DNA from: Candidatus Kaiserbacteria bacterium RIFCSPHIGHO2_01_FULL_46_22
Lineage (GTDB): Bacteria > Patescibacteriota > Minisyncoccia > Phycocordibacterales > UBA918
Assembly: GCA_001779595.1 (NCBI GenBank)
Contig: MFKO01000008.1
Span: 5,618 to 48,204, forward strand
Direction of reading: 5' to 3'
DNA length: 42,587 nt
Below are positions 946 to 17,458 of this stretch, one piece after another; position 1 is the stretch's first letter; each line of letters starts with the position of its first letter. Made by a program: the position numbers and the translations under genes. The notes under the pieces were generated by a model. It saw nothing but the letters and a program-made list of their open reading frames with translations, was not told where the DNA came from and did not search any database.

Positions 946-2029
946 GGAACGCGCGGAGAGCGGCACCCAACGCCACCCCAAAAGAAGGCCCAATTTGACG
1001 CAGTGTGTCCTCTAGGAATGCCGGATACGCAACCTTCGAGAAAGGATTTGCCAATTCCACTGGTCTTCCCAAACGATCTTGTGCAAATTCGAGCATATAA
1101 GGTCCGGCAAAAACTCCGCCGCCTAAAACAATGCGTCCTAAAGGCGTATTGGAACGCGCCTCGTACTGCTCAATCAAACGACGAAATTCCGATAACGGAC
1201 TTTCTAACACGGTGGTAGTAACCTTATATATTTCTGCGCCTTTTTCTTCAGCTCGGTCGTAAGAACGCTTAATATCTTCCGCGGCTTCAAAAGGTATTCC
1301 GAGAGTTTGTGATACGCGTTTTGTTATCTCTTGACCACCCTGCCCCACACGATGCAGGCGTTCCAAGTTACCCTGACGAACTAGGTAAAGTTTAGCTCCG
1401 CGTGCACCGATATCGATGATAGCCAGCGTTGTATCACTCTGCCGCCAAGTCGAGCGGATCAAACTAAAAACTTCGATCTCGGCCGGTTGTGATGTCATAC
1501 CAATATTCATCAAGAGTGACCGGTATTCTTCTAGCGCGTTATTTTCAACCGCCGCTAACATTATCTCGTGCATATTATTAGCAGTTGGAGGAGCTGGAAT
1601 CTCTGTCCAGTCTAACGTCACTTCTGAAAGTGGTAGTGGTACGTATTTACGCGCTTCGACAGGAACCCTGGCAGCTAAACTGTCTGTTGTGTTCTGCATT
1701 ACCGGCAAAGTGATGACGGTGACAAAACTTGAAGAAAGCGGCATTGCCAGCGCACCACTACGTCCTTTAACACCTGCCTCACGCAGCACATCCGTCACAG
1801 CCTCTACTCTGTGTTGTTCAGTTAGAGTTATGATCTCACCCAGAGGTTTTCCTTCGTATGGACCCAACTGCAATTCTCCATAGGTGCGCAACGCTACAGC
1901 TCTTTCAATATCTTCCAACTCAACCACCTTCACTGAAGAACCGCCGATATCAATACCGACGGCCATAGATGACCGCGCAGGAGTAGTTTCACTTAATCCG
2001 GAAAAGATTTTTTTAAAAGAAAAGGCCAT
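941..2029 (-). CDS. pilM: Type IV pilus assembly protein PilM (actin-like ATPase)
   Basis: VGIDIGGSSVKVVEL phosphate-1 motif, IIDIGA, IVLGGG, ANPF and C-terminal VALGAALR, all typical of PilM. Confidence 0.9.
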   Translation of the reverse strand: MAFSFKKIFSGLSETTPARSSMAVGIDIGGSSVKVVELEDIERAVALRTYGELQLGPYEGKPLGEIITLTEQHRVEAVTDVLREAGVKGRSGALAMPLSSSFVTVITLPVMQNTTDSLAARVPVEARKYVPLPLSEVTLDWTEIPAPPTANNMHEIMLAAVENNALEEYRSLLMNIGMTSQPAEIEVFSLIRSTWRQSDTTLAIIDIGARGAKLYLVRQGNLERLHRVGQGGQEITKRVSQTLGIPFEAAEDIKRSYDRAEEKGAEIYKVTTTVLESPLSEFRRLIEQYEARSNTPLGRIVLGGGVFAGPYMLEFAQDRLGRPVELANPFSKVAYPAFLEDTLRQIGPSFGVALGAALRAFQ

Positions 2030-5014: not shown

Positions 5015-5104
5015 TGGCGGAGAGAGCGAGATTCGAACTCGCGAACCCTGTTAAGGGTCGACAGTTTAGTAAACTGTTGGTTTCAGCCACTCACCCATCT
5101 CTCC
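5015..5104 (-). tRNA. tRNA-Ser(ACT)
   Basis: Cloverleaf GGAGAGA...TCTCTCC-G-CCA with long variable arm and G73; anticodon arm ACAGT-TT-ACT-AA-ACTGT; T loop TTCGAAT. Confidence 0.9.
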
Positions 5105-5141
5105 GTATGCACCAATATAGCAAATTTTTGTGAGGACCGAG

Positions 5142-5312
5142 CGGAGGGAGTTTCGCTCTTACAGAGCAGTATAGGTTGTCGATATTTTAGTTCGACTCTT
5201 GTCTCCTAAAATATCAGGCAACCTTTTCGAATCCCTCCGTCTCTCGCAAAAATATAGTCGCAGAACGCTTGCGCGTTATGCTCCTTATTTTGCGGAGACG
5301 GAGGGATTCGAA
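5142..5312. repeat. tRNA 3'-end mirror element
   Basis: 5226-5251 is the reverse complement of 5288-5312 (tRNA T arm, acceptor strand and trailer; 25 bp, 1 bulge); inner hairpin at 5173-5224; short CGGAGGGA copy at 5142-5149. Confidence 0.75.
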
Positions 5313-5379
5313 CCCTCGAGGCCGATTAAAGCCTGGCCCCTTAGCAAGGGGCTACGTTAGACCACTCTGACACGTCTCC
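5293..5379 (-). tRNA. tRNA-Ser(GCT), CCA not encoded
   Basis: GGAGACG acceptor, anticodon arm GCCCC-TT-GCT-AA-GGGGC, long variable arm, GAGGG-TTCGAAT-CCCTC. Confidence 0.95.
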
Positions 5380-9841: not shown

Positions 9842-9846
9842 ATCAG

Positions 9847-9920
9847 TCCGCCCTCTTGGACTCGAACCAAGGACCACAGAGGTATAAGCTCTGTGCTCTA
9901 ACCAACTGAGCTAAGGGCGG
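9847..9920 (-). tRNA. tRNA-Ile(TAT), CCA not encoded
   Basis: CCGCCCT/AGGGCGG acceptor, A73, D arm GCTC-AGTTGGTTA-GAGC, anticodon arm CAGAG-CT-TAT-AC-CTCTG, CTTGG-TTCGAGT-CCAAG. Confidence 0.9.
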
Positions 9921-14779: not shown

Positions 14780-14827
14780 AGAACCGAATTATACAGAAAG
14801 ACCTTATTTTTGCTATATTTAGTGACA

Positions 14828-15274
14828 ATGACAGATTACGTCAGAAACAAAAAAGTCACTCTCAACTTTGAACTCCTGGACCTATTTGAGGCGGGAGCAG
14901 TTTTACTTGGTACAGAAGTTAAATCGATTCGCCAAGGGCAAGGTAAACTTGATGGTTCGCATGTGGTCGTGCGTGGTGGCGAAGTCTATCTAGTTGGCGC
15001 CTCAATTCCGCCATTTCAAAAAGCCAACGCCCCGACCGATTACGACAACGAACGTGTCCGCAAACTACTGCTTTCTAAGAAAGATATCCTCAAGCTTTAT
15101 AATGAAAGTGAGAAGAAGGGCTTGACAATAGTGCCAATTAGGTGGTACAATACTGGAAGCAAATTGAAGCTCGAAATAGCTGTTGCGAAGGGTAAAAAGA
15201 AACACGATAAACGTGATACCATCAAACAACGCGACACCAAACGCGAGATCGAGAGAACATTGAAAACTCAATAA
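14828..15274 (+). CDS. smpB: SsrA-binding protein SmpB
   Basis: NKK...FEAGAVLLGTEVKSIR, RKLLL, GLTIVP, GKKKHDKR; start ATG 14828 after TGCTATATT; tmRNA nearby. Confidence 0.95.
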   Translation: MTDYVRNKKVTLNFELLDLFEAGAVLLGTEVKSIRQGQGKLDGSHVVVRGGEVYLVGASIPPFQKANAPTDYDNERVRKLLLSKKDILKLYNESEKKGLTIVPIRWYNTGSKLKLEIAVAKGKKKHDKRDTIKQRDTKREIERTLKTQ

Positions 15275-15863: not shown

Positions 15864-15908
15864 CCTCTGCACTTCCCCGAATACTTTCAAGCTACTTGAA
15901 AGTATTCG

Positions 15909-16295
15909 GGGGATGACAGGCATCGACGGTTTGCCCGGTTCATCTGCGCAATGCCGAAGTTGAATGGGACTTCGCTAAAACTCATTCATCTGTACGTGCA
16001 AACAAAAGCGTACCAAGCCCGTTTGCATACGGGTTCGCCTTCGCTCGAGCTTAAATTTTAGCTCGCGACTGGCGACGCCGCGTTACCTGACGTTTGATAA
16101 GGTAATGTCGGTGGAATAGCCATCGAACTCTAGATAATTGGTTTGTTCCTCCAATTATCCAAAATGTTAGGAACTGCTCGTCTGAAGGTTTTGCCTACTT
16201 TTCCACTTCAGACGCTAAGATCTAAACTAGGCTATGCATTGTAGACTCAGCTGGATCGACATTCTCGGACGGCGGTTCAATTCCGCCCATCTCCA
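15909..16295 (+). ncRNA. ssrA: tmRNA; predicted tag (A)ANKSVPSPFAYGFAFARA
   Basis: 5' GGGGATG pairs with 3' CATCTCC-A including G3-U; GGCATCGAC D-loop analogue; GGACGGCGGTTCAATTCCGCC T arm; tag frame GCA(15998)...TAA(16054); close to smpB. Confidence 0.93.
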
Positions 16296-16555
16296 CGAGT
16301 ACAAAAATCCGCTCACACATTTGTGTGGGCGATTTTTGTTCGTGGAGATGGAGAAAGCAAACTGCTTTGCTTTCGTGCGGAGTTGAACAGGCGGAGCTAT
16401 GTTTTTCTTCCCTTCCTAGAAGAAAAACGAGCGAGCCGGGCCGGCAAGTACTTATGAACGCAGTGAATTAGTAACTTGGTATGTCAACTCCGCCCATCTC
16501 CACGAGTACAAAAATCCACACGTTACGTGTGGATTTTTTGTTCGTGGAGATGGAG
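16277..16555 (+). repeat. Duplicated and mirrored tmRNA 3' end
   Basis: 34-nt direct repeat 16277-16310 / 16484-16517 (1 mismatch); each copy is followed by a short hairpin and then an antisense copy (16331-16353, 16532-16555). Confidence 0.85.
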
Positions 16556-16585
16556 TGATTTATTCTTTCCTACCCGTTTCTAGAT

Positions 16586-17458
16586 CTATGGATTACAAAC
16601 AAAAACTGCTTCTGCCGTAAAGCTACCGTCGGGATTTGGTCCTCCTACTAACGTTACTCTGTCCCCTGTTTTCAAATCTGATACAGAAGCAGGACCGGCA
16701 GGAGTGTCGATGGTTGCCTGTCTGGCGAGATTAACGGTCAGGTTCTGATTGTCATTTCTCTCAATAGTAAATGAGTCGTTCCCCACACTAACAATCTCTC
16801 CTACGCCGCCAGTACCGCCACAAAGATCTTCTCCTTGCGGAACTTCACCCTCTTGCTCATTATCTAAACGCTCAGACTGCATACCACCAGCGCCACCTCT
16901 TGGATTAATCACCGGCTGATGACTGATTGGATAAACAACCAACCCATAAAATGCCGCCGCTGCAACAACACTCACAACTGCTGCAATGATTATATTTTTG
17001 TAGTTCTTGGCGCGGACCCACTTGTCGAGAATCACAAACACAAAGTAGCCGATCATGAAACCGAGCGCATTCAATATCACATCATCAATATCAAATATGC
17101 CTACCTTGAGCACTACCTGCATTGTCTCGATAGCTAGACCGGTAGCAGTGGCTAGGGCGAGAGTTTTTTTCCACGTGATGTTCTGATACACAAAAGGCAC
17201 AAGGAATCCGATTGGCACTAGCAACACGATATTTCCAACCAGATTAATGCCCGCAATAATCAGCCCTTTATAGCCGAACAAATAAGGCAAAATGGTCTTG
17301 AATGGCACGAAGTTTGGGGCATGTCCCGCATCAGTTCCGCCAAAATTCAGCATCAGTTGACCCACTCTGATCATTGGTATGTCTTTAAACACCATCACTT
17401 TGACCAGAAGGGCACTAAAGGCAACAAGAATTACAGCTGGGATTAAACGCTTCCACAT
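16586..17458 (-). CDS. VanZ family membrane protein with C-terminal DUF5666-like OB domain
   Basis: NFVPFKTI, NLVGNIVLLVPIGF, IETMQ...GIFDIDDVILNALG; C-terminal GEIVSV...DLKTGDRVTLVG..DGSFTAEAV. Confidence 0.8.
   Translation of the reverse strand: MWKRLIPAVILVAFSALLVKVMVFKDIPMIRVGQLMLNFGGTDAGHAPNFVPFKTILPYLFGYKGLIIAGINLVGNIVLLVPIGFLVPFVYQNITWKKTLALATATGLAIETMQVVLKVGIFDIDDVILNALGFMIGYFVFVILDKWVRAKNYKNIIIAAVVSVVAAAAFYGLVVYPISHQPVINPRGGAGGMQSERLDNEQEGEVPQGEDLCGGTGGVGEIVSVGNDSFTIERNDNQNLTVNLARQATIDTPAGPASVSDLKTGDRVTLVGGPNPDGSFTAEAVFVCNP

Follow-up and report, generated by a model that had tools for sequence, protein, structure and literature searches.

A gene-less structured module behind tRNA and tmRNA genes of Kaiserbacteria-like bacteria: a candidate insertion unit carrying sense and antisense copies of its target

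Genomic islands and prophages with tyrosine integrases, and their cis-mobilisable derivatives that lack one, insert in the 3' ends of tRNA and transfer-messenger RNA (tmRNA) genes, where they produce a direct repeat that starts in the T-loop, restore the gene with a tail borne by the element and can insert repeatedly. Here we describe a unit with the same kind of footprint behind the tmRNA gene of Candidatus Kaiserbacteria bacterium RIFCSPHIGHO2_01_FULL_46_22. It lies in a stretch of 42,587 nucleotides (contig MFKO01000008.1, positions 5,618 to 48,204 of the forward strand), which is called the window below. Unlike an island, the unit is only ~200 nt long and has neither an integrase gene nor kilobase-scale cargo; it carries an antisense copy of its target and a covarying fold, and a second form of it makes no duplication. 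We interpret it as a gene-less, non-autonomous insertion module for tRNA and tmRNA 3' ends, whose sense and antisense arms would set the site, and we assign this interpretation a probability of about 0.55.

In the phage CTX-phi, a folded single-stranded DNA (ssDNA) gives the integrated order sense - X - antisense - loop - sense. Such integrative mobile elements exploiting Xer (IMEX) resemble the module in having no recombinase of their own, in carrying on one strand sense and antisense copies that fold into a duplex site, in regenerating the target and in allowing tandem insertions. In the integration of CTX-phi-type IMEX, Xer is reported to perform a single-strand exchange between ssDNA and double-stranded DNA (PMC3442271). 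The module differs from these elements in that its targets are varying tRNA and tmRNA tails rather than dif, in that it measures 0.2 kb and not a phage genome, and in that no single-stranded replicative form is known for it.

The ends of IS200/IS605 insertion sequences (IS) read the flank by base pairing, through a hairpin and about 4 adjacent guide bases. The module shares with them strand-specific folded ends, a hairpin beside bases complementary to the 5' flank and, in its second form, the lack of a target duplication. Its guides are longer, however (11-20 nt), its first form carries an 18-nt target copy, and this genome has no Y1 transposase; the IS200-like copies of one relative, G036, have other hairpins. 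In the bridge RNA of IS110 and in guides resembling CRISPR RNA (crRNA), a constant hairpin handle is joined to variable target-complementary segments. The modules show a constant handle and variable arms as well, with different copies matched to different targets, but no DEDD recombinase was found in any of the 5/5 genomes searched, nor TnpB; no such protein gene adjoins the module, and nothing in bridge RNAs or crRNAs corresponds to its 3'-terminal target copy. As for miniature inverted-repeat transposable elements, the inverted arms of the module are target copies that differ by locus, and no parent IS was found. The modules are thus ordinary in their integration-type footprint and unusual in their size, their lack of genes, their conserved fold and their antisense copy of the target. 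Full-text searches of one literature library returned no published description of such modules, and this large family is apparently undescribed.

Layout of the unit behind the tmRNA gene

The initial annotation of this locus had pointed out two sense copies of the tmRNA tail, at 16277 and 16484, each followed by a different hairpin and then by an antisense copy, the first antisense copy being split by an inserted hairpin and resuming at 16377-86 to pair perfectly with the second sense copy. A repeat finder bore out this layout. The direct repeat D1 (34 nt, 16277-16310 and 16484-16517, 1 mismatch, spacing 207) comprises the last 19 nt of the tmRNA gene and a 15-nt trailer. The direct repeat D2 (21 nt, TTTTTGTTCGTGGAGATGGAG, 16333-16353 and 16535-16555) is identical in its two copies, each of which is antisense to the sense copy preceding it (inverted pairs I3 and I5). 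The inserted hairpin, GAAAGCAAA-CTGC-TTTGCTTTC, occupies 16353-16374, and GCGGAGTTGA at 16377-16386 is complementary at 10/10 positions to 16484-16493 (inverted pair I13).

A full module, in 5' to 3' order, consists of the sense copy S1, a trailer with a terminator-like hairpin, the antisense arm P1as, the hairpin hpA, GU and the second antisense arm P2as, a three-helix core, and the sense copy S2, which repeats about the last 18 nt of the tRNA (Table 1). The C at 16488 of S2 matches P2as perfectly, whereas S1, which is the native T-loop, has T there. The trailer of the element type, beginning with CGAGTACAAAAA, is also found behind tRNA-Arg, tRNA-Tyr and tmRNA genes of relatives. Behind S2 follows a truncated second unit, whose antisense copy (16542-16553) is succeeded by neither hpA nor a core. 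At this locus the window holds one complete unit and what looks like the stump of a probably older one, pushed downstream by the later insertion.

Because the discriminator A16295 is followed by CGA, the tmRNA gene does not encode CCA, as had been noted before. A gene of the CCA-adding enzyme family is present in this genome, and the missing CCA therefore needs no special device.

The proposed structured nature of the 207-nt unit was also confirmed. The unit alone (16338-16505) folds at -73.7 kcal/mol (z -7.25; 0/200 shuffles as good), with P1as and P2as paired with S2 over 12 and 10 bp. A 311-nt stretch folds at -148.5 kcal/mol, compared with -84.9 ± 5.5 kcal/mol for shuffled sequences (z -11.5; 0/100 as good), and in this fold the acceptor and T-arm of the tmRNA are sequestered by the arms. 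The 207-nt unit contains no protein-sized reading frame of its own; the sole listed open reading frame (50 aa, 16234-16386) starts within the tmRNA gene. A mini-frame in hairpin B (ATG TTT TTC TTC CCT TCC TAG) was considered and discarded, as it is not kept in other copies.

Module family with fixed position behind tRNA genes and a covarying fold

When the locus was compared by blastn with 60 relatives, many matches per genome were obtained to the part between the copies, beyond those to the tmRNA. The copies in relatives immediately follow tRNA-Val, -Tyr, -Trp and -Arg genes or tmRNA genes and share their strand in every case. In the 647-kb genome itself, iterative nhmmer found 10 copies; for 8/10 a tRNA or tmRNA gene lies 36-70 nt upstream on the same strand, and a ninth follows a partly masked tRNA; a covariance model gave 11 matches, and the tRNA-Ser(GGA) locus carries a module of the same type. 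The position and orientation of the family behind tRNA genes are thus fixed.

A survey that used no model led to the same picture. Exact antisense matches of ≥9 nt to a gene's own tail, within 400 nt, were present downstream of 15/39 tRNA and tmRNA genes and upstream of 3/39. Sense copies of the tail were found downstream of 12/39 and upstream of 2/39, and 9/39 genes had both, in the order antisense then sense. The sense-antisense-sense layout seen at the tmRNA gene therefore recurs in this genome. About one-third of its tRNA genes carry a module; strongly reduced genomes thus put up with, or make use of, hundreds of structured non-coding bases next to essential RNA genes.

Modules are about 115-365 nt long (median 191) and their boundaries are alike in dozens of loci; tandem arrangement and decay are both frequent. 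The 41 congeners carry between 0 and 35 copies each, and the 3/41 with 0 copies are 94-99% complete. A family-A model matched 7/151 genomes sampled across the phylum. Such patchiness fits a dispensable element, mobile or formerly mobile, and not a universal RNA.

The exact 24-nt hpA sequence occurs at ≥121 loci (i.e., at least 121) in other genomes. Among the matches listed, the records are titled Kaiser-, Nomura-, Kerfeld-, Campbell- and Yanofskybacteria, Paceibacteria and, in many cases, Saccharibacteria, as well as Elusimicrobiaceae and some Sulfurovum-type bins. Again among the matches listed, the end of a same-strand tRNA lies within 400 nt upstream in 84/127 hpA instances, with nearly all isoacceptor types represented, and for 20 hpA loci without a tRNA by ARAGORN, 2 have a tmRNA and 2 a tRNA with a group I intron upstream. 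The hosts of the family are Kaiserbacteria-like and other bacteria of the candidate phyla radiation (CPR), and its sites are tRNA and tmRNA 3' ends and occasionally other genes.

Three loci from records titled Sulfurovum (L047, L061 and L100) have the exact hpA 24-mer and related downstream sequence, with no tRNA detected nearby by ARAGORN or Rfam; these contigs may be mis-binned, or the module may have another target there.

The fold has covariation support. In an alignment of 32 module copies, compensatory changes occur in 27/33 consensus pairs; paired cells make up 94.0% of the total, compared with 33-47% when partners are slid, and the covariation score is 0.50 vs 0.06-0.11, a value reached by 0/500 shuffles. 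Since G-U cells (46) outnumber A-C cells (8), the folding strand is the tRNA-sense strand, either RNA or ssDNA, and the alignment points to that strand acting as a single strand. Motifs of an RNA type are also present: the second core family has GUAA loops, and a covarying mini-stem is flanked by UGA...GAA. At orthologous tRNA-Val loci, the trailer and the guide covary.

An Rfam scan of 16250-16650, which covered self-cleaving ribozymes, group I introns and tRNA-like RNAs, gave tmRNA as the sole significant family; all other rows scored far under the gathering scores, and none appeared at E values up to 10. The 'CUUAUGAG...CGAA' of hairpin C resembles a hammerhead core, but the essential G is missing in all copies and no ribozyme model matched, so this candidate was rejected.

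The bases after hpA are matched to the neighbouring gene: they pair with the tail of their own tRNA over a median of 11.5 nt, vs 6 nt for tRNAs of other types. Two registers were distinguished among 57 loci. In the first (30/57) the guide pairs with positions -19..-9, and S2 is present in 21 of these loci; in the second (11/57) it pairs with -3..+8, i.e., the acceptor end and the trailer, and S2 is present in none. The other 16/57 loci show shorter pairing or pairing at other positions. In most cases the duplicated block, typically 18 nt long, starts at -17.

One hpA module, in a record titled Candidatus Kaiserbacteria (L052; ~1365-1560, minus strand), is located at the 3' end of a protein-coding gene. 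Its guide matches the coding sequence just upstream, the module supplies a new short C-terminus and stop, and the old end of the gene is displaced behind it.

Table 1. Coordinates of the tmRNA-associated unit, its parts and a second module (window positions)
Feature	Position	Strand	Basis or remark
tmRNA gene	15909..16296	+	ARAGORN; Rfam RF00023, 104 bits; tag ANKSVPSPFAYGFAFARA; discriminator A 16295, then CGA
S1, sense copy 1 (tmRNA T-loop to discriminator; TCAATTCCGCCCATCTCCA)	16277..16295	+	direct repeat D1
Element-type trailer (CGAGTACAAAAA...), terminator-like hairpin 1 (core 16310-16331), T run	16296..16339	+	terminator-like site
P1as, antisense of acceptor 3' strand + CGA (TCGTGGAGATGG)	16340..16351	+	inverted pairs I5, I6; pairs with S2 in the unit fold
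hpA, 9-bp hairpin, CUGC loop, + GT (24-mer)	16353..16376	+	8/9 pairs covary
P2as, antisense of T-loop + T-stem 3' strand (GCGGAGTTGAAC)	16377..16388	+	inverted pair I13; guide register -19..-9
Structured core	16389..16483	+	alignment A1, RNAalifold, pair counts
Core helix P3	16390-16392 with 16435-16437	+	alignment A1, RNAalifold
Core hairpin B	16396-16406 with 16423-16432	+	alignment A1, RNAalifold
Core hairpin C	16446-16452 with 16470-16477; mini-stem 16458-9/16463-4	+	alignment A1, RNAalifold
S2, sense copy 2 (TCAACTCCGCCCATCTCCA)	16484..16502	+	D1, I13
Truncated second unit: same trailer, different hairpin (arms 16510-16523 / 16525-16538)	16503..16553	+	D2, I3, I7
Second module, different core family	5105..5291	-	behind tRNA-Ser(GCU) 5292-5379, before tRNA-Ser(ACU) 5015-5104

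Insertion, its possible mechanism and competing explanations

The relatives provide both occupied and empty sites. The module layout is present at the tmRNA loci of G004, G009 and G016 and missing from those of G011, G029, G003 and G007. G029 is the sister of G004 (tmRNA identity 93.3%; identities to this genome 83.5% and 85.2%, respectively). In G029 the native tmRNA ends as '...CATCTCCA CCA AATCTGAAGCAAAACGAGCC'. In G004 the same 'CCA AATCTGAAGCAAAACGAGCC' stands behind S2, whereas the element-type CGAGTACAAAAA follows S1. The native CCA trailer of G029 being found behind S2 in G004, the module must have displaced the native tail and trailer. Together with the dispersed family, these empty sites and the position of the CCA trailer fit the non-autonomous mini-element targeting tRNA genes that the initial annotation had offered as one of two possibilities. 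CCA could not be used as a general marker of polarity, being too rare outside the tmRNA locus (in 74 loci, after S1 in 5/74 and after S2 in 5/41). No joint skipping the unit was seen in the reads of 4 runs.

What a module brings is a replacement trailer with a terminator-like hairpin, two antisense arms on either side of the nearly invariant hpA, a conserved folded core and S2. It would enter by recombination of its own target copy with the chromosomal tRNA tail. As a single strand, either ssDNA or RNA, P1as and P2as would pair with S2, so that the core is looped out and hpA marks the junction; from one strand alone this pairing would create a duplex image of the target, interrupted by hpA, and a trans-acting enzyme could recognise the site through hpA and the adjoining pairing. 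By analogy with CTX-phi, single-strand exchange of such a folded site with the chromosomal tail would be expected to leave sense, trailer, antisense, loop and sense in this order. If the element brought the left part of S2 with it, the perfect match of P2as to S2 rather than S1 would be expected. After insertion, the tmRNA would use the element-borne tail and depend on the CCA-adding enzyme.

The search for an enzyme was less rewarding. In the 5 genomes covered by the enzyme-family searches, we found one Xer-like tyrosine recombinase each, and the single PF00589 match of this genome lies on another contig than the unit. A reverse transcriptase was present in 1/5 genomes. The Y1/HUH transposase family (PF01797) had 0 matches in this genome; an intact Y1 transposase was found in G036 only, with weak partial matches in G004 and G016. 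The tyrosine recombinase or HUH/RAYT gene that the initial annotation had envisaged as a companion was therefore not found to accompany the modules. The Y1 transposase of G036 was rejected as an autonomous partner, the hairpins of its IS200-like element being unrelated to the modules. Large serine recombinases were likewise rejected, as their counts do not track module counts in the 41 congeners: G026 has 7 matches with 0 modules, and G002, G003, G021 and G034 have 0 matches with 16, 5, 16 and 22 modules, respectively.

The same IS200-like element occurs in G036 as three near-identical ~650-bp copies, each with a 151-aa Y1 transposase (L155, G036:C2:58300-62600; L156; L157). One copy sits precisely between a tRNA-Leu gene and the module of that gene; another is located elsewhere.

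Several observations weigh against an insertion module. No mobilising enzyme was found, either encoded by the unit or tracking with the modules, and genes for IS110-type transposases (PF01548) and TnpB were absent (0/5 genomes searched). Neither free nor circular nor cargo-bearing forms were seen, and there was no copy in the phage, plasmid and viral collections: the exact hpA 24-mer had 0 matches in viral_contigs, and the unit itself had no blastn match among phage and plasmid records. The empty site of G029 could also be explained by deletion between the direct repeats S1 and S2, and the identity of the unit between this genome and G004 (86.5%, vs 85.2% for the tmRNA) would also suit a function in place. 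Since targets differ between modules, no sequence-specific recombinase can read them. The modules of the second register have no sense copy and are missed by the picture of a folded attachment site, and at several loci P2as fits the real tRNA better than S2. By analogy, a hairpin-plus-guide scheme of the IS200/IS605, bridge-RNA or crRNA kind would cover both registers, but it comes without an enzyme. Because each mechanistic picture has its gaps, we adopted the non-autonomous module for tRNA tails and left the mode of catalysis aside.

A bolder version of this interpretation, which we put forward only tentatively, is that base pairing guides the modules, which would then be programmable insertion elements in which an invariant hairpin handle and a guide of 11-20 nt read the sequence just upstream of the insertion point. 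A change of the arms could direct a module to any conserved 3' end, whether of a tRNA, a tmRNA or a protein gene, and the catalyst would be an unrecognised host or phage enzyme acting on the single-stranded form, or the folded RNA itself. If the arms do specify the site, the modules would constitute a very small reprogrammable insertion system, and the catalyst would be worth finding.

One alternative, which we consider rather unlikely, is a resident functional RNA. The module would be co-transcribed by read-through and would serve as a switch or platform for 3' maturation, CCA addition or turnover, its arms pairing with the tRNA's own 3' half or with S2 as a decoy; its spread would be secondary. 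The strong covariation on the tRNA-sense strand, the GUAA loops and flanked mini-stem, the covariation of trailer and guide at tRNA-Val loci, and the sequestration of the tmRNA acceptor and T-arm in the 311-nt fold all favor such an RNA, as does the observation that, between this genome and G004, the unit has diverged no faster than the tmRNA. However, modules are dispensable, with none in three nearly complete congeners and 35 copies in another; four relatives have module-free tmRNA loci, and few of the genomes sampled across the phylum match. The unit has a terminator-like hairpin and T run upstream, and no promoter-like site was found. Modules also occur at a protein-gene 3' end (L052), and many copies are decayed. 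The second possibility raised by the initial annotation, an RNA switch that sequesters the acceptor and T-arm and controls maturation, thus finds little support as a general control of tmRNA maturation, because of the dispensability of the module and its position behind a terminator-like hairpin; an RNA-level role may nevertheless exist, since folding of the tRNA-sense strand as RNA is compatible with the covariation. Coverage in the RNA run X10 came from the tmRNA of a relative only, and no part of the module was covered. If the module does act as an RNA, it would be a widespread and undescribed partner of tRNA 3' ends.

An ordinary attachment-site scar also appears unlikely. Here the unit would be the attL/attR remnant of a conventional island that lost its cargo, possibly mobilised in cis by the integrase of a related island. 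A direct repeat of a tRNA 3' fragment beginning in the T-loop is indeed the classic footprint, and in this genome an 8.4-kb island of low GC content separates a tRNA-Asn gene from an hpA module with a tRNA-Asn S2; relatives show kilobase-spaced pairs of modules with cargo between. Scars would not be expected, though, to have uniformly tiny sizes and the same boundaries in dozens of loci, nor would they need a conserved fold and antisense arms. At loci with hpA and no near S2, no second tail copy was found within 1.5 kb. The only tyrosine integrase is the one Xer-like gene per genome, and the serine recombinase counts do not follow the module counts. The tRNA-Asn island, moreover, looks inserted at the junction of a pre-existing module, with a partial tail remnant before the module hairpin. 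Whether DNA element or RNA, the modules account for many of the "duplicated tRNA tail" signals in CPR genomes.

We regard DNA uptake followed by homologous recombination as improbable. According to this explanation the module is a natural knock-in cassette, with the tRNA gene as left arm and the 18-nt S2 as right arm, integrated in naturally competent cells by host recombination with no dedicated enzyme, and its hairpins serve termination and stability. Competence has been reported for CPR bacteria, the modules have no linked recombinase, their targets, the tails of tRNA and tmRNA, are conserved across species, and the identical 24-nt hairpin in records titled as several CPR classes fits horizontal transfer. 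Still, 18 nt is little homology for RecA-type recombination, a right arm is missing altogether from modules of the second register, and the antisense arms, the invariant hairpin and the two discrete guide registers are left unexplained.

A mis-joined repeat can be dismissed: although short-read graphs break at repeats, and contigs of run X2, which tile the stretch, end at 16294, 16379 and 16351, a contig of 844 nt (record 18) from X3, a DNA run of another study, is identical over 16267-16686, so that the layout is not an artefact of this assembly, and the same tmRNA-locus layout recurs in G004, G009 and G016.

Islands apparently landed at module junctions, and further features of the window

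The modules appear to be hot spots for the landing of larger islands. The tRNA-Asn island mentioned above (L154, G000:C2:210854-219130; 8.4 kb, 0.33-0.39 GC) lies between the gene and its matching hpA module with tail copy. Its genes include one for a large serine recombinase (329-aa frame, possibly frameshifted), one for an Mrr-like nuclease protein of 612 aa and one with a SocA/Panacea domain, and the island seems to have landed at the junction of tRNA-Asn and its module. At four loci of relatives (L009, L011, L013 and L014), cargo ends in a common motif (GTTCTAACRTCG...) just before the module trailer, which suggests an island family using the tRNA-module junction as landing site; one of these cargo stretches carries a pilin-like gene.

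The second module of the window, on the minus strand (Table 1), carries at +49 an uninterrupted stretch of 18 nt that is perfectly antisense to the tRNA-Ser(GCU) tail. It is devoid of hpA and contains a GUAA-capped hairpin and a decayed sense copy. A GCU/ACU pair of tRNA-Ser genes with a module between them is also present in locus L035. According to ARAGORN, two tRNA genes on the minus strand of the window have unusual anticodons, namely tRNA-Ser ACU (5015-5104) and tRNA-Ile UAU (9846-9920).

The tmRNA gene is preceded by smpB (14810-15274) and a divergent ftsH. Directly before it, at 15875-15911, we also noted a perfect 17-nt inverted repeat with a 3-nt loop (CCCCGAATACTTTCAAG / CTTGAAAGTATTCGGGG), the 3' arm of which overlaps the first three bases of the tmRNA gene.

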